A stretch of DNA of 50,086 nt, from IMG/VR virus record IMGVR_UViG_3300017747_005419, positions 1 through 50,086 of that record. One strand, given 5' to 3'. This stretch comes from a virus (taxonomy: Duplodnaviria; Caudoviricetes). The number at the start of each line of letters is the position of its first letter. The stretch's first letter is position 1. Position numbers and translations under genes: made by a program. The notes under the pieces were generated by a model. The model was not told where the DNA came from. It saw nothing but the letters and a program-made list of their open reading frames with translations, and made no database searches. Of the stretch, positions 1,479 to 50,086 are shown one piece after another.

Positions 1479-1510
1479 AAGGAGGCTCCTTCGGGAGCCT
1501 CCTTTGCGTT
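1479..1510 (+). terminator. intrinsic terminator-like hairpin
   Basis: AAGGAGGCTCC-TTCG-GGAGCCTCCTT (11 bp, UUCG loop), followed by TGCGTT. Confidence 0.55.
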
Positions 1511-1533
1511 GGGGCCCTGATCTGCGACAATCC

Positions 1534-3660
1534 ATGCATGCTGCATGGATCAAGCCCGTGGTGACCAAGAAGCTGACCGGCAGCTACCGGGTCGGCCCCG
1601 CCGAGCTCAAGCACGTCCGCACCTGGACGAAGGCCGACGCCATCAAAGGCGCCGTCTCGGCCGTGCTCGACCAGGGCGAGTCGAAGCTGCGCGCCCAGCA
1701 GCTCTACGGCGTCAGCCGGCGCACCATCCAGCAGCGGTGCGAAGAGGAGATCAAGCGCCGCCAGGCCCTCAACCCGGACTACCGCCCGCCCGACCTGCCG
1801 GCCGGCGGCTGGGCCAAGAAGGAGCCCGCCCCACAGGTCGACGAGTTCCACAACCTGCAGCTGGTGCCCAAGCTCGCCGTCGTGCCCGACGTCGTCGACG
1901 AGCTCGACGAGTGGGAGGAGCTCGAGGAGCTCGAGAAGGAGCTCGACGAGGACACGGCCGGCGCCTACGTCGGCCCCACCGTCACCAACGAGCGCCGCCG
2001 CGTGCCGGTCGGCGACGAGTTCGACCGCATCTACTTCAACGGCCTCAGCGACTGCCCCGACTGCCTCGTGCACCACGACAGCCCGCCGTTCCACAGCGAG
2101 ATGCGTCGCGCCATGAACGACCCCGACATCAAGCGCCTCGGCTTCAACCTGCCGCCGTACCACGCCAAGTCGACCGTCATCACGATCCGCAACACCGTCG
2201 AGCGCATCGCCCAGAACCCGAACTACCGGCGCATCATCGTGTCGAAGTCGATCGACTTCGCCCGCACGCTCATGGTCGGCATCCAAGACCTGCTGACCAA
2301 CAGCGAGCTCTACGCCAACTGCGAGCGCAACCTCATCGACGACTGGGGCCCGTTCCGCACCGGCGAGAAGGGCGAGCGCTGGAACCAGTCGGCCATGTAC
2401 GTCGCCGGGCGCACCTCGGCCCAGAAGGATCCGACCGTCATCGCCCTCGGCGTCGGTGGCCAAATCTACGGCCGGCGCGCCGACGACATCGTCTTCGACG
2501 ACATCGCCACGGTGGCCAACCAGTCGAACCCCGAGAACGTCGTGAAGATGCTCGAGTGGATCGACAAGGAGGCGCTGTCACGCATCGGCAAGGCCGGCAA
2601 GGCCGGCTGGGTCGGCACCCGTGTGCACGGCGGCGACATCTACAGCCACCTCGCGAAGCGGGTCGGCTACACCTGGGTGCGCTACCCGCTCATCATCGAC
2701 GACGAACAGCAACTCACCCTGTGGCCAGAGCACTTCCCATACGAGCAGGCCATGGTGCACCGCGGCGAGATGTCCGCCCGGGACTTCGCCCTCGTCTACA
2801 TGAACCACGAGCTCCCAGGCTTCGGTGCCAGCTTCACCCCAGAGAACGTCGAGCCATGCTTCGATCATCTGCGCGGCGTTGGGCAGTTCGACCCGAAGTG
2901 GCGGTTGATCGCCGGCCTGGATCCAGCAGGTGGTGGGGCCGGCGGTGGCGTCACCTCGGCGCTTCTCTACGGCGTGGACCTTGAGACGGGCATGCGTTTC
3001 ATCGTCGACCATCAGGCCACCCAAGGTATGCGCGCCCCCGAGCTCAAGGCGCTCATCTTCGACTGGTCCGATCGCTACCCGATCTACGCCTGGCGCGTCG
3101 AGAACAACGCCGTGCAGTCGAACCTCGTGCAGTTCAACGAGGACATCACGCGGCCCCTCGCCCAGCGCGGCACGCGCGTCGAAGGCCACGTCACCACCTC
3201 CAACAAGTGGGATCCGCAGGTCGGTGTCGAGTCGATCGCACCGCTGTTCTCGAGCGGCATGATCTCGATCCCGTGGGCGAACGAACCGAGCCGGCGCATC
3301 ATGCAGCCGCTCATCGACGAGCTCTACACGTTCCCCATCGGCGTCAAGCAGGATCGTGTCATGTCGCTGTGGTTCGCCGAGCTCGGCGTGCGCGACATCC
3401 TGCGGCGCGCTGCTATGCCGCTGTTCGACCAGCGCACCGATCGCTGGCCGAACCGCATCAAGCGCAACCGTCGCATCGTCGACTTCGCCGAAGGCAAGGT
3501 CGAGCGTGTCGGGCTGCACGACCAGCTGCCGACGCGCGTGTTGCGCAACCGTCGCGTCGTCGGCCGGCTCACCGGCCACGGCACGCCGATGCCTCTGCAA
3601 CCCATCAAGACGCCCCTCATCAACGTGGCGGGCTACGTGGAAGGTGACGATCTTGCTTGA
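1534..3660 (+). CDS. terL: terminase large subunit with N-terminal HTH domain
   Basis: Walker A-like LPPYHAKST, GVGGQIYGRRADDIVFDD (Walker B), VGTR coupling motif, RNase H-like GLDPA...VENN...QDRVMSLW. Start uncertain (1504/1534/1558). Confidence 0.9.
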   Translation: MHAAWIKPVVTKKLTGSYRVGPAELKHVRTWTKADAIKGAVSAVLDQGESKLRAQQLYGVSRRTIQQRCEEEIKRRQALNPDYRPPDLPAGGWAKKEPAPQVDEFHNLQLVPKLAVVPDVVDELDEWEELEELEKELDEDTAGAYVGPTVTNERRRVPVGDEFDRIYFNGLSDCPDCLVHHDSPPFHSEMRRAMNDPDIKRLGFNLPPYHAKSTVITIRNTVERIAQNPNYRRIIVSKSIDFARTLMVGIQDLLTNSELYANCERNLIDDWGPFRTGEKGERWNQSAMYVAGRTSAQKDPTVIALGVGGQIYGRRADDIVFDDIATVANQSNPENVVKMLEWIDKEALSRIGKAGKAGWVGTRVHGGDIYSHLAKRVGYTWVRYPLIIDDEQQLTLWPEHFPYEQAMVHRGEMSARDFALVYMNHELPGFGASFTPENVEPCFDHLRGVGQFDPKWRLIAGLDPAGGGAGGGVTSALLYGVDLETGMRFIVDHQATQGMRAPELKALIFDWSDRYPIYAWRVENNAVQSNLVQFNEDITRPLAQRGTRVEGHVTTSNKWDPQVGVESIAPLFSSGMISIPWANEPSRRIMQPLIDELYTFPIGVKQDRVMSLWFAELGVRDILRRAAMPLFDQRTDRWPNRIKRNRRIVDFAEGKVERVGLHDQLPTRVLRNRRVVGRLTGHGTPMPLQPIKTPLINVAGYVEGDDLA

Positions 3661-37128: not shown

Positions 37129-37310
37129 TGGTTCCTCTTCTCGTGGTTGCGCACGTAGTCGCGCACCATCTTGCGCACCGCCGAAGCGACCGTGCGATCG
37201 TCGGCAGCCACCGCCGCCTTGAACGCCTCGTACAGCTCGGCGTCGAGCTCGACGATCATGCGAGCGTGCGTGTCGCGCCACTCAGGGGTGCGCGAGTTGG
37301 ACTTGGCCAT
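37125..37310 (-). CDS. ribbon-helix-helix DNA-binding protein
   Basis: RMIVELDAELYEAFKAAVAADDRTVASAVRKMVRDYV. Confidence 0.75.
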   Translation of the reverse strand: MAKSNSRTPEWRDTHARMIVELDAELYEAFKAAVAADDRTVASAVRKMVRDYVRNHEKRNQ

Positions 37311-38269
37311 CAGGGTTTCCATCCTCCGTTGATCGCCTCGGTGAAGTCCTTGAACACCGGCGGCACGCGCAGCTGGATGACCTGCGACCCGCTGCCCATG
37401 GCCATCGATCGGTTGTCGGCAGCCTGGCCGAGCATCGTCGAGAACCGCGTGCGGGCGCTCTCGCCGGCCGCATCGTTGTCGAAGCACAACGTGATCTCGA
37501 AGTGCTTGGCCACGAGCTCATCAGCCCAGTCCTGGCGCAGCGTGCTGGCGCCGCCAGGGAGGCCGTACACGCTCGTCTGGAGCGTGTTGGCGTACGCAGT
37601 CCAGCAGTCGGGCTCGCCTTCGACGACGAGGGCCCTCGGCCACCTCTCGGTGTAGAACGGATCGGGGCGGTACAGCTGTGCGCCGAAGCGCGAGCCCTTC
37701 ATCGACACCTTGTCGCCGGTCGACGTGTTGCGCACCTTCACGCCCACTACGCGCCCGTCGGGGTGGCGATGCGGGATCCACAAGGCGTTGGCGGCAGCGC
37801 GCACGCCGAAGCGATCGAGCACCATCGGCTCGATGCTCCAGCGGCGTGTCGCGAAGGCGATGGCGTCGTGCACCCAGCCGAGCTGACGGGCACCGTGCCC
37901 GTCGATGAGGAGCGGCACCGACTCGCTCAGGAAGCGGTCGGTGAGGTCGGTGTACTCGATCTCGCGCACCGGCGCCGCCGCCTGACGGATCGCCTTCGGC
38001 ACCTCCTCGGCGTCGACGTCGAGCGTGCGCGCCAGGTAGCGCACCGTCGCCGTGTAGCCCGAGCCGAGCACACGCATGGCGAGATCGATCGTGGAGCCGC
38101 GCCGGCCGCAGCCGTAGCAGTAGAAGTGACCGTCCTCGTAGAGGTGACACGACGCCGTCTTGTCGAAGTCGTGCTCGGGATCGGGGCAGTTGATCTTGCC
38201 GGTGCGGTCGGGCGGCTCGAGGTCGAGGGCCTCGAGCACCGCCCGCCAGTCGATGCGCTGCTCACTCAT
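37310..38269 (-). CDS. DNA primase (CHC2 zinc finger + TOPRIM)
   Basis: CP..EH.D..AS...FYCYGC; VVEGEPD, LPG, LCFDNDAAG, KDFTE. Confidence 0.9.
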   Translation of the reverse strand: MSEQRIDWRAVLEALDLEPPDRTGKINCPDPEHDFDKTASCHLYEDGHFYCYGCGRRGSTIDLAMRVLGSGYTATVRYLARTLDVDAEEVPKAIRQAAAPVREIEYTDLTDRFLSESVPLLIDGHGARQLGWVHDAIAFATRRWSIEPMVLDRFGVRAAANALWIPHRHPDGRVVGVKVRNTSTGDKVSMKGSRFGAQLYRPDPFYTERWPRALVVEGEPDCWTAYANTLQTSVYGLPGGASTLRQDWADELVAKHFEITLCFDNDAAGESARTRFSTMLGQAADNRSMAMGSGSQVIQLRVPPVFKDFTEAINGGWKP

Positions 38270-39103: not shown

Positions 39104-39934
39104 TCAGAGTGGTCGTATGCGCAAGGTCTGCTCGTCGAACGAGTGACCTACCCCGCCGAGGTGGAGTCCACCATCGGTGCGCGTCTTGAGGAACTGCAGC
39201 TGTATCAGACCGTCGTTGAAGGCGCCGGGCTTCAAGCTGGGCCGGTAACCGGCCAGAACGTAGTCAGCGGCCGTGGGGCCACCGTAGCGAGCGTCCTTCA
39301 GCTTGACGGGGGTCCACCCGCCGCCTTCGCTGTCGCTCATGTTGAGCTGATGCAGCACGACGATCGCGATGTCGCGTTCGCGTGCGAAGTCTTTGAGTTT
39401 GCGGCTGATCGCGTCGAGCCCTTCGGACGCCGTCATCGAGGCGCTCTTCACGAGCTCCATGTAGTCGATGATGATCAACCGCGGCTTCACGCCGAGCCAC
39501 ATGGCCTCGGCTTCGTCGAGGGCATCGCCCATCTGGCGAATCGTCATGCCGGGCGTGTCGACGATGGTCAGGTACGGGAAGTCGCGGTGCAGCTGGTCGA
39601 GCGCACTCGACTCGCCGTGGGTGCGCAGATCCCACTCGATGTGCCGGGTCGGCGTGTTCGAGTGGATGGCGGCGATGCGCGAAGCGATGAAGCGCCCCTG
39701 CATCTCGAGCGAGAAGAACACCTGCGGAACACGCCGTGCCATCTCTGCGACGTTGCACGCCCAGGCCGTCTTGCCGACACCCGAGCGGGCGAGGAACATG
39801 CAGACCTCACCGAGGGCGATGCCCTCGGTGCGCGAGTCGAAGTACGGGAAGCCGATGGGGATGCGGGCATCCTCACGGGCAGCCCACTCGCGATGGGACT
39901 CGATCGTTTCGTAGAGAGGCACGACGTGCTTCAC
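39104..39934 (-). CDS. DnaB-like replicative helicase (ATPase domain only)
   Basis: ARSGVGKT, FSLEM, IIIDYM, LHQLN, ADYV, KTR. Confidence 0.9.
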   Translation of the reverse strand: MKHVVPLYETIESHREWAAREDARIPIGFPYFDSRTEGIALGEVCMFLARSGVGKTAWACNVAEMARRVPQVFFSLEMQGRFIASRIAAIHSNTPTRHIEWDLRTHGESSALDQLHRDFPYLTIVDTPGMTIRQMGDALDEAEAMWLGVKPRLIIIDYMELVKSASMTASEGLDAISRKLKDFARERDIAIVVLHQLNMSDSEGGGWTPVKLKDARYGGPTAADYVLAGYRPSLKPGAFNDGLIQLQFLKTRTDGGLHLGGVGHSFDEQTLRIRPL

Positions 39935-45762: not shown

Positions 45763-46157
45763 CGGGTACCTCCGAGGTGGTTGGCGGACTTCGGCGTGAG
45801 GTCGTTCTCGAGGCCGGCGAACGGGTCGGCCTCGCGTTCGGCGTCGCGTTCGGCTGCCAGCTTGATGGCGTCGCGTGCGACGCTGCGCAGCACCTTCGCC
45901 GCCTTCGGGGCGTCGTAGGCCAGCTGGTCGACGAGCGCCGGGGTCCAGAGCCCCCAGAGGCCGGTGGCGGCAGGCGTGGCCTGCAGCACCTTGAGCGGGT
46001 CGCCGTCGAACAGCACCACGAGGAACGACTCGACGTAGGCGTTGCGCTCCGCCTTGGCCACGGCGCCACCTTCGTGGCCGAGTGGCCACTGGCGGCTGTG
46101 GCGCTCCTTGATGGCCGCACGGGCGGCGAGGTGGTTGAGGACGGTGGTCTTGCTCAT
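45759..46157 (-). CDS. hypothetical protein
   Basis: GAAGGAGCCACCCG-ATG. MSKTTVLNHLAARAAIKE... Confidence 0.7.
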   Translation of the reverse strand: MSKTTVLNHLAARAAIKERHSRQWPLGHEGGAVAKAERNAYVESFLVVLFDGDPLKVLQATPAATGLWGLWTPALVDQLAYDAPKAAKVLRSVARDAIKLAAERDAEREADPFAGLENDLTPKSANHLGGTR

Positions 46158-46432
46158 CGGGTGGCTCCTTCGGTGTCGGTGACGACCTGGCGGATGGCGG
46201 CATCGCGCGTGCGGTGCCCGAACGTGGACCGGAACTTGGGGCCGTTGGACGCCCACAGGGTGTCCCAGGTGCTCTTCGTTTCGGCGCCGTGCAGCACGTA
46301 GCCGAGCACGGCGTCGTCACTGGTGCGGTGCACCACGTAGGCCGGGACGGCCTCGCGTGTGCCCTTCAGGTCGATGGCCTTGAGACGCACGCCCGGCACC
46401 TGGGTGCCGAGGCTGCGGTTGCGGTTGGTCAT
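46154..46432 (-). CDS. hypothetical protein
   Basis: GGGGAG RBS. MTNRNRSLG...VLGYV...W...RTRDAAI. Confidence 0.7.
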   Translation of the reverse strand: MTNRNRSLGTQVPGVRLKAIDLKGTREAVPAYVVHRTSDDAVLGYVLHGAETKSTWDTLWASNGPKFRSTFGHRTRDAAIRQVVTDTEGATR

Positions 46433-46433
46433 C

Positions 46434-46739
46434 TCACTCCCCCTTCGGGTCGAGCTCGCACGCCCCGGCGCCGTGGCGGTAGCCGCAGGCGTTGCAGAAC
46501 GATGAGCGGGCGATGATGGCCCAGTCGGGCAGGTCGACGAGCACGTCGCAGTCGCGGTCGATGGCGACGATGAGGTCGAGGGCGGCACGGTGGTCGACAC
46601 CGAACACGACGGTGTCGCCGGTCAGGTTGTCGACGCCTTCGAACACGATGACCGTGTCGGTGAGGCTGCCGGTGCGGTAGTCCTCGACGAGCACGAGCGT
46701 GCCGTTGGGGACGTAGTCGATGGAATCGAGGGTGGTCAT
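46434..46739 (-). CDS. hypothetical protein with C-terminal CxxC..H....C
   Basis: GAAGGAGCCACCC-ATG. MTTLDSIDYVPNGTLVLVED... Confidence 0.7.
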   Translation of the reverse strand: MTTLDSIDYVPNGTLVLVEDYRTGSLTDTVIVFEGVDNLTGDTVVFGVDHRAALDLIVAIDRDCDVLVDLPDWAIIARSSFCNACGYRHGAGACELDPKGE

Positions 46740-46818
46740 GGGTGGCTCCTTCAGGTGAGGCCGAGCGCCTCTGGGAACCACCGGCCCGAAGGCCGGTAGC
46801 TCCCCGCGATGCTCAGCG
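46737..46818 (-). ncRNA. structured intergenic RNA motif, copy F
   Basis: cgcUGAgcaUCGCG-[GGGAGCUACCGGCC UUCG GGCCGGUGGUUCCC]-A-[GAGGC GCUCG GCCUC]-accug-AAGGAGCCACCC-AUG. Confidence 0.75.
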
Positions 46819-47070
46819 TGGGGCGTGCACGTAGATCGGGTCGCCGTGCAGGATGTGCACGACCCGACCGGTGTCGAGGGTGAGCGAGGTGAACTCGTTG
46901 TCGTCCTCGATGGCGTCGATGCGGTGCGCCGTGTAGGCGGTGCCCTCGGCGTTGACGAGGGCGTAGCGGTCACGGAAGCTCAGCGCCCGGTGAGGGGTGC
47001 GCCGCACGTTGCCGAGGTGGAACGGGTGGATCGTGTGCCCTTCGAGCGGGTCGAACGGGAGGTGGTTCAT
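46813..47070 (-). CDS. hypothetical protein
   Basis: GAAGGAGCCACCC-ATG. MNHLPFDPLEGHTIH... Confidence 0.7.
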   Translation of the reverse strand: MNHLPFDPLEGHTIHPFHLGNVRRTPHRALSFRDRYALVNAEGTAYTAHRIDAIEDDNEFTSLTLDTGRVVHILHGDPIYVHAPR

Positions 47071-47096
47071 GGGTGGCTCCTTCGGTGTTGGGATTG

Positions 47097-47126
47097 ACAC
47101 TACACGGTGCTGTGCTCACCTTGCAA
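47097..47126 (-). promoter_or_regulatory. sigmaA-like promoter embedded in a hairpin
   Basis: TTGCAA-N18-TAGTGT. The -35 box is the centre of dyad GCTGTG(A)CTCACC-TTGCAA-GGTGAGCACAGC. Confidence 0.5.
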
Positions 47127-47132
47127 GGTGAG

Positions 47133-47921
47133 TCACAGCCAGCCGTGCTTCTTGGCGCACACCGGGCCGATGCCCCGGGCCACCGACGCCTCGTCTTCGA
47201 GGGGACGGGAGCACAGGCCACAGGTGCCGGTGAGCTGGCCGTACCGCTCTGCAGCGGCGCGGGGGTCGGCCAGGATGGCCGTGAGCTGCTCGACGAGCCG
47301 ACCGGCGTAGGTGCGGCCCGGCGCTTGCTTGCCGTACCGCTCACCGCTGCCGTACTCGGCGGCGTCCTTCACGAACACCCAGCCAGCCCAGTTGCCACGC
47401 TCGACGTTGTCGATCTCGAGCTTCAGCCGGGTGTCGCCACCAGGGACCGCATAGCGGCCACTGGGGAGCCCGGACAGGTCGAGGCCGGCGTCGGCCTGCG
47501 TGGCCCGTGGGCGGGCCGGTGGTGGCGTGCGTGCGAGGTCGTAGAGCACCTCGCCGCGCACCTTGGCGGGCCCGAGGATCGGGCCGAGGTTGACGTCAGC
47601 GGTGCTGCCGTCGGCCTTCGTGACGACCACGGTGGTGCCCTCGGCACCGCGTGGCCCTCGAACCACCCACTTGCCCGTGTGGTCGTTCTTCGCCCACCGG
47701 TAGGTGGGCCCGTCCGACGTGTAGGTGTGGGTGGTGCCCTCGCCGCCCCCTGCGGGGCGCTCGGGCGCTTCCACCGAGCTGGGCCCGGGAGCTCGACGCA
47801 GCAGCGCGAGCGGGCCTTCGGTGGGCGCTGGTCCGCATTCCCAACAGGGACCGCCGAACAGCGGGTCGTGGTCCGTCCCCTTGCACGTCGTGCAGTTGGG
47901 GTCGGAGTAGGTGGTGATCAT
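47133..47921 (-). CDS. DUF6011-like zinc-binding protein
   Basis: C-terminal CGLCSRPLEDEASVARGIGPVC; N-terminal CTTC...CWEC. Confidence 0.75.
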   Translation of the reverse strand: MITTYSDPNCTTCKGTDHDPLFGGPCWECGPAPTEGPLALLRRAPGPSSVEAPERPAGGGEGTTHTYTSDGPTYRWAKNDHTGKWVVRGPRGAEGTTVVVTKADGSTADVNLGPILGPAKVRGEVLYDLARTPPPARPRATQADAGLDLSGLPSGRYAVPGGDTRLKLEIDNVERGNWAGWVFVKDAAEYGSGERYGKQAPGRTYAGRLVEQLTAILADPRAAAERYGQLTGTCGLCSRPLEDEASVARGIGPVCAKKHGWL

Positions 47922-47994
47922 GATGGCTCCTTTCGATGCTGACGCATCTGAGAACCACCGGCCTGTCGGCCGGTAGCTCTCCGCTGGGTCAGCG
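47919..47994 (-). ncRNA. structured intergenic RNA motif, copy E
   Basis: cgcUGAccCAGCG-[GAGAGCUACCGGCC GACA GGCCGGUGGUUCUC]-A-[GAUGC GUCA GCAUC]-ga-AAGGAGCCAUC-AUG. Confidence 0.75.
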
Positions 47995-48456
47995 CTGCAG
48001 TGCGTCGAAGGCTGCGTAGAGCAGCTCGACGGCGTGCTCGTCGCTGGCTTCCCACTCCCGGGCGAGGGGCGGGTTGTCCGACTCTTCGAGGGTGTTGAGC
48101 GCGGCCCGGTTCTGGGCCCACCCAGCGACCGCCTCGGCGCCCAGGAGGCGCTTGAGGATGTCGAGCTGGCGCCGCGCTTGGTCCTCGGCGTCGGCCACGG
48201 CCTCGATGAACGAGGAGTGGCTGTCGGTGTCGAGGTGCCAGCACACGAGGTGCTCGAACAGCGTGTTCGGCTCGGCGTAACGGTCGGGCACCTCGGCCAG
48301 GTCGATCTCGCCGAGCGTGAGCCCTTCGACGTCGAAGTCGAAGTCGCCCACGCCGTCGATGAAGCACTGGCTCACGGCCGAGGCGTTCTCGGCCTCCACC
48401 TCGACGGTGCCGAAGTAGCGGCCGAACTGGAGGAGGGTTGCGCGGTAGGTGTTCAT
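47989..48456 (-). CDS. hypothetical protein
   Basis: AAGGAGCCATCACC-ATG. MNTYRATLLQFGRYFGTVEVEAENA... Confidence 0.7.
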   Translation of the reverse strand: MNTYRATLLQFGRYFGTVEVEAENASAVSQCFIDGVGDFDFDVEGLTLGEIDLAEVPDRYAEPNTLFEHLVCWHLDTDSHSSFIEAVADAEDQARRQLDILKRLLGAEAVAGWAQNRAALNTLEESDNPPLAREWEASDEHAVELLYAAFDALQR

Positions 48457-48537
48457 GGTGATGGCTCCTTGGTGTTGCTGATGCTGACTGCATCTGGCTG
48501 CCACCCCCGAAGGGGTGGCACCCCGTTGCGTTCAGCT
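48454..48537 (-). ncRNA. structured intergenic RNA motif, copy D
   Basis: agcUGAacgCAACG-[GGGUGCCACCCC UUCG GGGGUGGCAGCC]-A-[GAUGC AGUCA GCAUC]-agcaacacc-AAGGAGCCAUCACC-AUG. Confidence 0.75.
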
Positions 48538-48777
48538 GAACTTGGTCGCGCTGACGATGCGGTTGTGGCCTCGGAACTTCACGATGGTGAAGACGTGCAG
48601 GCCGCACTCGTTGCCGGTGAGCTGGTGGCCGACGGTGCTGTTGGCCAGCGTGCGCAGGCGCACGGTGGAGTGGTCGTCGAGCTCGATCGACAGCTCCCAC
48701 GTTGGGTTGCCCGACGACGAGCAACGCAGGCGCTGGGCGTCCACGATGCGACCGCTGATGATGTTCTTGGTGGTCAT
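48532..48777 (-). CDS. small beta-rich hypothetical protein
   Basis: AAGGAGCCATC-ATG. S.SGNP.W motif. Confidence 0.7.
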   Translation of the reverse strand: MTTKNIISGRIVDAQRLRCSSSGNPTWELSIELDDHSTVRLRTLANSTVGHQLTGNECGLHVFTIVKFRGHNRIVSATKFS

Positions 48778-48860
48778 GATGGCTCCTTGGTTGCGAAGGC
48801 TGAGACGCCTTCGCCCAACCCACCGTCAACGGACGGTGAGCTGGACGCTGTGTCTCAGCG
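48775..48860 (-). ncRNA. structured intergenic RNA motif, copy C (most divergent)
   Basis: cgcUGAgacaCAGCG-[UCCAGCUCACCGUC CGUU GACGGUGGGUUGGG]-C-[GAAGGC GUCUCA GCCUUC]-gcaacc-AAGGAGCCAUC-AUG. Confidence 0.75.
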
Positions 48861-49124
48861 GCCGGGCACTCGAACCGAGTGCTGCTCCAGGCGACGGCAG
48901 AGCGTCGCCAGGATGTTGTGGCGGGCCCGGTCGTTGTAGATCGCCGCCTTGTGGTTGCCGATCGCATCGGCGAACGGCTGCACGAACTGACCGGCGATGT
49001 CGATGGTCGTCCGGTTGAACCGGATCCCCGGGCCGGTGAGCCCGGCGTGCTGGATCGCGGCCTCGGCCTCGGCGATGTGGCTGCGGGTGAGGCCCTTGAG
49101 GGTGATGCCCTGGTGGGTGTGCAT
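48855..49124 (-). CDS. hypothetical protein
   Basis: AAGGAGCCATC-ATG; 89 aa. Confidence 0.7.
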   Translation of the reverse strand: MHTHQGITLKGLTRSHIAEAEAAIQHAGLTGPGIRFNRTTIDIAGQFVQPFADAIGNHKAAIYNDRARHNILATLCRRLEQHSVRVPGR

Positions 49125-49205
49125 GATGGCTCCTTGGGTTGGTGATGCTTAGCAGCATCTGGCTGCCCACCTCATGGGAGGTGGGCACCCCGCTGGCGCT
49201 CAGCG
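49122..49205 (-). ncRNA. structured intergenic RNA motif, copy B
   Basis: cgcUGAgcgcCAGCG-[GGGUGCCCACCUC CCAU GAGGUGGGCAGCC]-A-[GAUGC UGCUAA GCAUC]-accaaccc-AAGGAGCCAUC-AUG. Confidence 0.75.
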
Positions 49206-49490
49206 TTCGAGGATGACGACTTTCTCGCCCGGGTAGACGTCGACAGCCTCGTCGTGCAGCTGCAGGCGCACGGCTTGGGTGCCGTAGCGCTCGCCGTCGA
49301 CGGTGGTGATGTCGAGCACCTCGCGGTAGCTCTTGCGTGTCCAGCGTCCGAGGGTGTCGGGGCTGTAGGTCACGAGGGTGTCGCCTTGGGCGACCCGATG
49401 GGCCGACACGATGAGGAGCGGTGCGTCGTCGTTGACGTGCTCCCAGTAGCCGCAGCCCTGGTTGCTGTCGAGGGGTGGGTTGATGGTCAT
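49200..49490 (-). CDS. hypothetical protein
   Basis: AAGGAGCCATCC-ATG. MTINPPLDSNQGCGYWEH... Confidence 0.7.
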   Translation of the reverse strand: MTINPPLDSNQGCGYWEHVNDDAPLLIVSAHRVAQGDTLVTYSPDTLGRWTRKSYREVLDITTVDGERYGTQAVRLQLHDEAVDVYPGEKVVILER

Positions 49491-49570
49491 GGATGGCTCC
49501 TTGGTGTGCGATGCCTGAGGGCATCTGGCTGCCCTCCAGTCGCCTGGAGGGCACCCCGCTGGCCTCAGCT
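49488..49570 (-). ncRNA. structured intergenic RNA motif, copy A
   Basis: agcUGAggcCAGCG-[GGGUGCCCUCCAG GCGA CUGGAGGGCAGCC]-A-[GAUGC CCUCAG GCAUC]-gcacacc-AAGGAGCCAUCC-AUG. Confidence 0.75.
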
Positions 49571-49927
49571 GCGCTTGCTGGCTTCGACGTCGTCGATGAC
49601 CGCCCCGAGGGCTCCGAGCAGGGCTCGGGCCTCGGTGAGGCTGACGAAGACGCTGACGTCGCCGAACTGCACGGCGACGGTGTCGCGGTACAACCGGAGG
49701 GCGTCGACCTCGCACGCCTCGTTGCCTGCGAGCAGGCTCTGGGGCGTGTGGATGTTCACCTTGTGGTGGTCGTGGTCGGGCGAGGTGTACTCGGTGACCT
49801 CGACGTGGGTGCCGTCGAGCACCCACGTGTGGGTGGTGGCCTCGAAGGTCGGGATCCCGTCACCGGCCTCCTCGTAGCGGTTGGCTTCGACTCGGACGGT
49901 GGTGGTGGGTTCGATGGTGATGCTCAT
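49565..49927 (-). CDS. hypothetical protein
   Basis: AAGGAGCCATC-ATG; 120 aa. Confidence 0.7.
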   Translation of the reverse strand: MSITIEPTTTVRVEANRYEEAGDGIPTFEATTHTWVLDGTHVEVTEYTSPDHDHHKVNIHTPQSLLAGNEACEVDALRLYRDTVAVQFGDVSVFVSLTEARALLGALGAVIDDVEASKRS

Positions 49928-50086
49928 GATGGCTCCTTGGTGTCCAGCGGTGTCGCTGGCCGAGGTGACCAGGGCGAGGATGCTGGGGTCGGCTCACGGC
50001 CGGGCTGCTGTAGCTCGGGCTCATGCCACCCGCTACCGGCCCTAGCCGGGGCGCTGTGGATCTGCCAGCGGTTGTCGTCTTGGTCA

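Follow-up and report, generated by a model that had tools for sequence, protein, structure and literature searches.

A repeated RNA element with two mutually exclusive conserved folds between ORFan genes of uncultured phages

The complete IMG/VR virus record IMGVR_UViG_3300017747_005419 (50,086 bp, GC content 67.8%; hereafter the window, which was analysed at its full length) carries a structured RNA element that is repeated in the gaps between small genes near its right end. Structural genes run rightward from the large terminase gene TerL (1504-3660) onward, and a DnaB-like helicase (39104-39934) and a Toprim primase (37310-37825) are encoded leftward. The elements lie in an operon that is read leftward and comprises about ten small genes, ORFans for the most part, delineated by its open reading frames at the end of the genome (45759-49927, minus strand) and located upstream of the replication genes. 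Of nine operon proteins, eight were without a match in Pfam or PHROG. The exception, encoded by gene 47133-47921 (minus strand), contained a C-terminal DUF6011 (E 6.7e-15) and phrog_636, and a CxxC-rich stretch was visible in the N-terminal part of its translation. No promoter-like or terminator-like sites were detected inside the array by a scan that covered promoters of the sigma-70 type only, and the gene array is presumably expressed as one transcript whose six same-strand gaps carry the element.

The six minus-strand gaps (A to F) follow a common plan, in which GC-UGA at the end of the upstream gene is followed by a few nucleotides, CAGCG, a long GC hairpin (H1), AGA-UGC, a short hairpin (H2), an A/C-rich spacer, the sequence AAGGAGCCAYC containing the Shine-Dalgarno (SD) sequence, and AUG. 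The loops of H1 are often cUUCGg or of a similarly stable type. The leader after the element is A/C-rich (82% A+C in the 9 nt 3' of H2) and unstructured, and it leads into a strong SD and the AUG; each downstream gene has a strong SD of its own at a stop-to-start distance of about 75-80 nt. We refer to the pairing of the stop region with the H2 region as P1, and to a local hairpin of the stop region with CAGCG as H0. Two covariance models were used, R1, which was built from elements A, B, D, E, and F and left C outside the training set, and R2, which was built only from 11 copies found in relatives and excluded all window copies.

All six elements were recovered by R2, and all lie on the minus strand. 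Element A (49488-49572; R1 96.1 bits, R2 57.2 bits) separates genes 49565-49927 and 49200-49490, with the stop UGA at 49567-49565, the P1 5' strand at about 49569-49560, the apical hairpin H1 at 49556-49527, the P1 3' strand at about 49523-49513, H2 at 49525-49510, the SD AAGGAG at 49502-49497, and AUG at 49490-49488. Element B (49122-49207; 79.7 and 55.4 bits) lies between genes 49200-49490 and 48855-49124; its P1 contains one G.A mismatch, at the G of UGA, and its three-hairpin fold is predicted to be the stabler one (+8.0 kcal/mol). Element C (48775-48862; 44.0 bits with E 1.9e-7, and 32.3 bits), between genes 48855-49124 and 48532-48777, diverges most from the other copies and has an H2 of 8 bp (GCGAAGGC/GCCUUCGC); outside the six elements, R1 found nothing above 18.8 bits on the sense strand of the window. 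Element D (48454-48539; 80.6 and 42.9 bits) lies between genes 48532-48777 and 47989-48456, and element E (47919-47997; 59.8 and 34.6 bits), with an H1 of 14 bp that includes two G.U pairs, lies between genes 47989-48456 and 47133-47921. In element F (46737-46820; 78.3 and 42.7 bits), between genes 46813-47070 and 46434-46739, UG is changed to GG, and the change is compensated both in P1 (CA to UC) and in H2 (GCAUC to GCCUC; CA to CC).

The region around each upstream stop codon is complementary to the loop and 3' strand of H2, and the complementarities listed in the first-pass annotation of this DNA were all present: CUGAGG/CCUCAG in A, GCUGAGC/GCUAAGC in B, GCUGAGAC/GUCUCAGC in C (8 bp), GCUGA/UCAGC in D, where GCA/UGC extends P1, GCUGAC/GUCAGC in E, and GCUGAGC/GCUCGGC with one U.G pair in F. 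When the six cognate 5' and 3' strands were compared in register they formed 48 pairs, compared with a mean of 32.7 over 720 permutations, and only the identity permutation reached 48. Spacer lengths also covary in A, B, D, E, and F, with 3, 4, 3, 2, and 3 nt from stop to CA and 3, 4, 3, 2, and 3 nt from UG to UCA, respectively. An unconstrained duplex-energy test on the six copies gave -12.7 kcal/mol for cognate and -12.4 kcal/mol for non-cognate strands, with 291 of 720 permutations as good; GC-rich strands pair off-register, and the pairing signal is thus register-specific. MAFFT with RNAalifold on the six copies misaligned the 3' half and therefore returned no more than H0 and a portion of H1, and was replaced by covariance-model alignments.

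RNAfold predictions place this pairing in a nested structure: the partner of the stop region is UGC together with the loop of H2 and 1-2 nt of its 3' arm, and the helix closes one irregular hairpin around H1. In this extended fold, fold I, the 5' side of P1 runs from the last 1-2 sense nucleotides across the stop codon into the 4-6 nt beyond it; its other side is the loop and 3' strand of H2, and it is topped by an internal loop and H1. The fold I hairpin has a median of 22 bp (17-25), spans 48-62 nt, ends a median of 24 nt before the start codon, and retains a 1x1 mismatch (opposite the C or U after UG) and a purine-rich internal loop. The annotation had read the complementarity as a pseudoknot or kissing loop, which does not hold: one long hairpin of about 22 bp is closed around H1 and no pseudoknot is needed. 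P1 takes up the whole 4-nt loop of H2 together with nucleotides of the H2 stem, so H2 cannot stay intact. A literal model, in which H2 stays folded and its loop kisses the stop codon as a pseudoknot or an anticodon-like UCA loop, is therefore extremely improbable in our judgement, even though the four loop nucleotides of H2 are the best-covarying partners of the stop region; the complementarity includes H2 stem nucleotides (columns 60-63 and 70-71) and continues coaxially into CA/UG and H1, and a 4-nt loop should not be able to pair fully while its stem is closed.

To follow the element beyond the window, R2 was run over 63 sources (731 kb), which yielded 30 sense-strand copies in eight records and four weaker antisense echoes. 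The sense copies are distributed as six in the window, five each in L079 and L090, four each in L083 and L138, three in L078, two in L160, and one in L081. All 30 lie upstream of TerL on the strand opposite to it. The relatives with copies have TerL proteins that are 52-54% identical, and R1 matches there were weak; the element family is shown to be common to distantly related uncultured phages. Scans of the whole records of five relatives with R2 gave no copies beyond the loci already fetched, and a further single copy was found in each of two records of metagenome-assembled genomes (MAGs), R2 having returned two single copies from four MAG genomes with 150 candidates scored per genome. The copy at L172:6810-6895 (minus strand) lies beside a 40%-identical TerL in a chromosome-level MAG labelled Gemmatimonadota.

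Other candidates were not counted as members. TerL relatives of about 46% identity (L085-L092) had only short simple hairpins before the SD (17-22 bits). Pattern scans of IMG/VR (GGCAGCCAGATGC..GCATC; CCAAGGAGCCATCATG) returned 72 loci, of which only L072 reached 39 bits with R1, unconvincingly, and the rest matched the SD-AUG part only. Rfam gave no matches at the gathering score over the whole window and none at E <=1 over 46600-50086, and blastn against cultured-phage records gave no match for the array or for a relative's element. TerL of the window shares only about 31-33% identity with its counterparts in cultured Streptomyces phages; of four TerL relatives in GTDB genomes, three lie within Acidimicrobiia MAGs; and the one sequencing run listed with the stretch is a freshwater metagenome (DNA), no RNA run being listed. 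The element marks a lineage of uncultured freshwater phages that probably infect Actinomycetota.

Across the 30 copies, cognate P1 strands formed 8.2 of 10 pairs compared with 6.16 for non-cognate strands, and none of 100,000 permutations reached the cognate value. When the strands were left ungapped and anchored only on the conserved CA and UG, the values were 8.63 and 6.58 of 11 pairs, again with none of 100,000 permutations. In alignment A8 (34 rows, four of them antisense), 85.3% of P1 cells were paired compared with 60.7% after shuffling, the covariation score was 0.680 compared with 0.226 (0 of 500), sliding the partners by 1-3 columns lowered pairing to 35-43%, and nine of the ten P1 pairs changed on both sides. 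The P1 effect is large and survives the ungapped test. H2 was predicted in every one of the 30 copies (stem 5-7 bp, loop 3-6 nt). Its cognate arms formed 5.77 of 6 pairs, which 0 of 100,000 permutations reached, compared with 4.75 for non-cognate arms, and at four positions A-U was exchanged for G-C. The covariation that the annotation had asked for in homologues is thus found for both pairings, across 30 copies in eight records.

P1 and H2 share nucleotides, and the two folds are hence mutually exclusive. In fold II, H1 is kept, the P1 3' strand folds on the next 5-6 nt to give H2, and H0 forms too in many copies. The shared nucleotides are changed in two copies, element F and the L172 copy, and each change is compensated in both partners; in L172, CA..UG..CA is replaced by GU..AC..GU and both folds are kept. 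Constrained folding of the 30 copies gave a mean difference of -0.1 kcal/mol between the extended and the H2 fold, with the extended fold stabler in 15 and the two within 3 kcal/mol of each other in 21. RNAfold on 96-nt contexts (z-scores -2.9 to -4.6) returned the extended fold as the minimum free energy structure in A, D, E, and F and the three-hairpin fold (H0, H1, H2) in B and C; slightly different ends changed the winner, to three hairpins in A, B, and E and the extended fold in C, D, and F. The shared nucleotides, the covariation of both pairings, and the near-equal predicted energies give sequence-level backing to the two-state switch of the first-pass annotation. Its local hairpin CGCUG/CAGCG fared less evenly. 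A 5' local hairpin of 4-5 bp was predicted in all six window copies, with the GCUG/CAGC type in A, B, C, and E only and different pairings in D and F. Among the 30 copies a hairpin in this region was predicted in 20, and no compensation was found for it, as copies with CUAA lose H0 while CAGC stays unchanged. Since H0 is lost without compensation wherever the stop region is not C-UGA, selection on H0 cannot be claimed.

The departures from pairing indicate which molecule is under selection. Among 600 cells in 20 well-paired column pairs, 61 were G.U and nine were A.C, which shows selection on the transcribed sense strand, that is, on RNA. The six repeats are shown to be paralogues, copies of one RNA element whose action is in the mRNA sense and which has two mutually exclusive conserved folds. 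The same asymmetry bears on a primary role at the DNA level, whether as PeSL-like or attC-like recombination junctions of cassettes or as ESAS-like inverted-repeat protein sites (PeSL and ESAS are described below). Such a role would fit the phages L078 and L079, whose structural genes are 99% identical and whose arrays are mosaic, with differing cassettes of gene plus element. In a comparison of L078:1-5400 with L079:1-6100, L078 2346-2418 matched L079 3521-3595 at 96% with unmatched flanks, and element copies thus appear as isolated islands of similarity. These sequences suggest gain or loss of cassettes by recombination at the elements, the mosaic boundaries having been judged from similarity islands rather than from base-by-base breakpoints, and the element may explain the shuffling of ORFan cassettes in the lineage. 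A primary DNA role is nevertheless very improbable: the selection is one-stranded, stem sequences and spacings vary with compensation, unlike the half-sites of proteins, no sigma-70-like promoter was found, no SAS consensus (the start-associated sequence discussed below) lies at the sites, and recombination at repeats is more likely a by-product. As for integron attC sites, the inverse core (RYYYAAC) and core (GTTRRRY) boxes occurred together in none of the six copies, and element C contained one incidental match per strand.

Two further observations in these records concern neighbouring repeats and variants. Between the array and TerL there is a second family of repeats, each about 80-110 nt long and 72-77% identical, in L078 (2986-3070, 3367-3468, and 4164-4265) and L079 (3994-4091, 4344-4417, 4759-4865, and 5194-5285). 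In the copies L078:2341-2425, L079:3190-3277, and L079:3516-3602 (minus strand), the 3' strand of the middle helix is CCUCCC or UUCCC and resembles an anti-SD; blocking the stop region lowered the predicted SD accessibility in such relatives, for example from 0.74 to 0.37, unlike in the window copies.

The window also holds junctions of other kinds. Between genes 47133-47921 and 46813-47070, the gap at 47071-47135 (minus strand) folds into a simpler 13-bp hairpin with a GNRA-type loop and scores only 18.3 bits with R1. Its stop UGA again lies inside the basal helix and H2 is missing; this is the only junction of the upper array that lacks the full element, and its hairpin is a degenerate or unrelated variant. 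The last junctions of the operon, at 46432-46436 (abutting, with a 1-nt gap) and 46154-46157 (a 4-nt overlap), both on the minus strand, have no element, and the operon therefore mixes element-separated with directly coupled junctions. Positions 1-790 and 49928-50086 together form about 950 nt that span both ends of the record, with dense GC-rich hairpins and no convincing open reading frame. This region adjoins the upstream side of the array if the map is circular, and may be a packaging, end, or promoter region.

The output of the element was then considered from the sequences that follow each fold. Across the 30 copies, the 9 nt following fold I contained 1.1 U on average (at most 3) and those following H2 contained 0.6 (at most 2), and a canonical intrinsic terminator was rejected, as there was no U-tract and no terminator-like site in the array. 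A transcription attenuator or pause, in which fold I would be a terminator hairpin without a U-tract that a closely following ribosome prevents, gains something from the GC-rich and very stable hairpin with its UUCG-type loops and from the attenuator-like order of regions, 1:2 versus 2:3. We regard it as quite improbable given the missing U-tracts and the lack of terminator-like sites. In addition, mycobacterial RNA polymerase does not terminate at hairpins without U-tracts, according to the cited part of PMC3993855, a mycobacterial rule that may not apply to the host of this phage.

Conserved bases could also mark a protein-binding site. C14, A15, G16, and C17 and U60 and G61 are highly conserved with almost no covariation, C17 and G61 being identical in 30 of 30 copies across phages whose TerL proteins are only about 53% identical, and H2 lies 8-20 nt upstream of the SD. 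These features would suit an operator for a phage or host RNA-binding protein at H2 or at the CAGC/UG internal-loop region, for example for early shut-off, with P1 as the anti-operator. This explanation is improbable, since no candidate RNA-binding protein was found and pairing in both folds also accounts for the conserved bases.

As the annotation had stated, GC-UGA closes every one of the six upstream genes, as AGC-UGA in A and D and as CGC-UGA in B, C, E, and F, whereas only one of 27 other long frames of the window with high GC content at third codon positions ends in GC-TGA. The last codon is CGC four times and AGC twice, and the RNA thus constrains the C-terminal residue. Among the 30 copies, of which 27 have the conserved CA, an in-frame stop lies 4-7 nt 5' of the CA, within the P1 5' strand, in 23, including all six window copies; the distance is 6 nt in 15 copies and 7 nt in six. 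From this geometry, a ribosome at the stop codon must unwind P1, as had been proposed. The stops are UGA in 20 copies, UAA in five, and UAG in five. UAA stands at the canonical position only in L138:1157 and L138:1558, both with UUA opposite, which is compensation at the stop codon itself. UGA readthrough or selenocysteine insertion with the hairpin was dropped as an explanation, because ten of 30 copies have UAA or UAG and the variation of H1 is compensatory rather than codon-preserving. Pairing of P1 fades on entering the coding sequence: of the 30 sense copies, 25 are paired at the column opposite the last wobble base and 18 at the one after it. Two readings suit these data. The helix may simply extend upstream to the limit set by the coding sequence, which probably accounts in part for the stop inside P1, or termination may be mechanistically coupled to the fold.

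The annotation had further linked termination of one gene to initiation at the next, and for this link folding provided no backing. With the stop region blocked rather than free, predicted SD accessibility went from 0.51 to 0.42 (n = 25 of 30) and that of the start codon from 0.56 to 0.62. A coupler that masks the SD was rejected, as the SD and start codon are unmasked in either fold and there was no consistent predicted effect. Overall, the first-pass annotation was partly right. Its observation is confirmed and extended to a family, and the RNA is a two-state structure that a terminating ribosome must open; the topology is nested, and its output is what we infer below.

By analogy with known processing sites, the reading we prefer, at a confidence slightly short of even, is that the element is a module for mRNA processing, stability, and insulation that is toggled by the terminating ribosome. 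A ribosome on the stop codon would melt P1 and free the 3' strand to form H2, and the module would punctuate the polycistronic early mRNA as a site of processing, stability, and insulation. Fold I would offer a two-turn double-stranded target of the RNase III type, as in the T7 early operon. A cut in the internal-loop region would leave H1 to cap the 3' end of the upstream mRNA, and the released P1 3' strand would fold into H2 and cap the 5' end of the downstream mRNA, which would give both conserved folds a purpose. With the ribosome-binding site free in either fold, each ORFan cassette could be expressed independently of its neighbours, and the module would insulate each ribosome-binding site from whichever ORFan precedes it.

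Several points weigh against this reading. The RNase III specificity of the host is not predictable from sequence, and what the element appears to share with T7 sites is architecture and context only. A pure processing site has no obvious need for a second fold of equal energy or for a fixed stop distance, and these two features fit a translation-sensing switch at least as well. The pair counts come from an alignment fitted to the structure by a covariance model, which favours cognate pairs, a bias that the ungapped test reduces and of which a residue stays, and the copies are paralogues and orthologues rather than independent samples, so the permutation figures are not clean probabilities. 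Finally, in seven of the 30 copies the stop lies elsewhere (0, 10, 10, 11, 12, 17, and 30 nt from CA, with the frame call ambiguous in the two copies at 10 nt) and P1 is kept, indicating that the helix has no strict need for a stop inside it.

The fixed stop distance and the second fold can also be read in terms of sensing. It is possible, if somewhat doubtful, that the element is a termination sensor in the mRNA, in which each ribosome that completes gene n would convert a bistable structure from the long hairpin to H1 plus H2, and the resulting state would determine what happens to the downstream cistron, by cleavage or protection or by ribosome hand-over. An outright translational device actuated by termination seems unlikely. 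In such a device P1 would be melted, H2 would snap shut, and H1 and H2 would bring the stop near the downstream SD for hand-over, reinitiation, or shunt-like transfer, or the toggle would gate de novo initiation, and gene n+1 would depend on gene n. It draws on the fixed place of the stop within P1 in 23 of 30 copies, the compensatory change at the stop itself, the conservation of two near-isoenergetic folds, and the last codon NGC in all six window copies, and in four of the seven exceptions the stop lies 10-12 nt upstream of CA, where a terminating ribosome would be expected to cover part of P1. Set against these are the SD and start codon, unmasked in both folds and without a rise in SD accessibility on blocking the stop, the strong SD that each downstream gene has of its own, and the stop-to-start distance of about 75-80 nt. 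Coupling declines with distance, and structure just after the stop correlated negatively with coupling, in the cited part of PMC12548453.

Structured intercistronic RNA is already a known kind, as in the T7 RNase III sites and stabilisers like the repetitive extragenic palindromic (REP) sequences. No equivalent of the present element was found in Rfam or in the literature searched, most subscription journals lying outside its coverage. No description was found, for any of the known kinds, of two exclusive folds that are each kept by compensation and are of near-equal predicted energy, or of an upstream stop codon inside the switching helix, where the RNA restricts even the final codon of the protein. 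Should the toggle be functional, it would be a compact natural module that reports that the upstream gene has been translated to its end, would bear on how operons coordinate translational coupling with mRNA processing, and might be used to insulate genes in synthetic operons of high-GC bacteria as a portable part. If the termination-sensor reading is true, interchangeable ORFan cassettes would carry a portable module for coupling and punctuation, with the stop codon as one of the structural components of the switch.

The closest known architecture is that of the early genes of phage T7, where the intercistronic gaps contain RNase III sites in the form of recurring irregular hairpins, each about two turns long and interrupted by an internal loop. 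The T7 early operon is polycistronic, lies at the genome end, and yields processed RNA ends that keep hairpins. The present element likewise is a repeated, irregular hairpin of about two turns with an internal loop, located between cistrons of an early operon at a genome end. It differs from the T7 sites in having no sequence similarity to them and no Rfam match, in the basal helix that holds the upstream stop, and in the conserved competing hairpin H2, and cleavage here is putative.

Attenuators and systems coupled by RNA unfolding, such as f1 genes VII/IX and rpmI-rplT (as described in the cited part of PMC12548453), share with the element three competing regions, 1:2 versus 2:3, with a ribosome on the first. 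Unlike in those systems, no terminator or SD-masking helix serves as the output here, and the sensed event would be termination at the normal stop codon, not the stalling of a ribosome on a leader peptide. In the eukaryotic setting of the cauliflower mosaic virus 35S RNA, ribosomal shunting involves an open reading frame that terminates at the base of a long stable hairpin. The element resembles this arrangement in that a reading frame ends at the hairpin base and the next initiation site lies just past the other side, and it differs in its bacterial setting and in the strong SD of the downstream gene, the transfer of ribosomes here being hypothetical.

The promoter early stem-loops (PeSLs) of T4-type phages are composite motifs of terminator and early promoter, as given in the cited part of PMC4122927. 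Like those cassettes, the element is a repeated intergenic stem-loop motif that flanks ORFans in a hyperplastic region, and its repeats may coincide with mosaic indels as those of PeSLs do, to judge from the element-only similarity islands of L078 and L079; unlike PeSLs it is accompanied by no sigma-70-like promoter and no U-tract terminator in the array, in a scan for sigma-70-type promoters only. The start-associated sequences (SAS) of Cluster K phages and their extended forms (ESAS) are similar in that an SD-containing motif is repeated before the starts of non-structural genes, with AGGAGCC in both and an inverted repeat with a variable spacer upstream. The 13-nt SAS consensus GGGATAGGAGCCC (<=2 mismatches, 3-7 nt upstream of the start) matched no element, even at 3 mismatches, and its 11 matches in the window at <=3 mismatches, compared with 14 expected by chance, included none at the elements. 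ESAS are imperfect inverted repeats of 17 bp in which the departures fail to keep RNA pairing, and their authors favoured DNA-binding sites. In the present element, by contrast, the departures are compensatory (0.680 compared with 0.226 shuffled) and G.U far exceeds A.C (61 versus 9).

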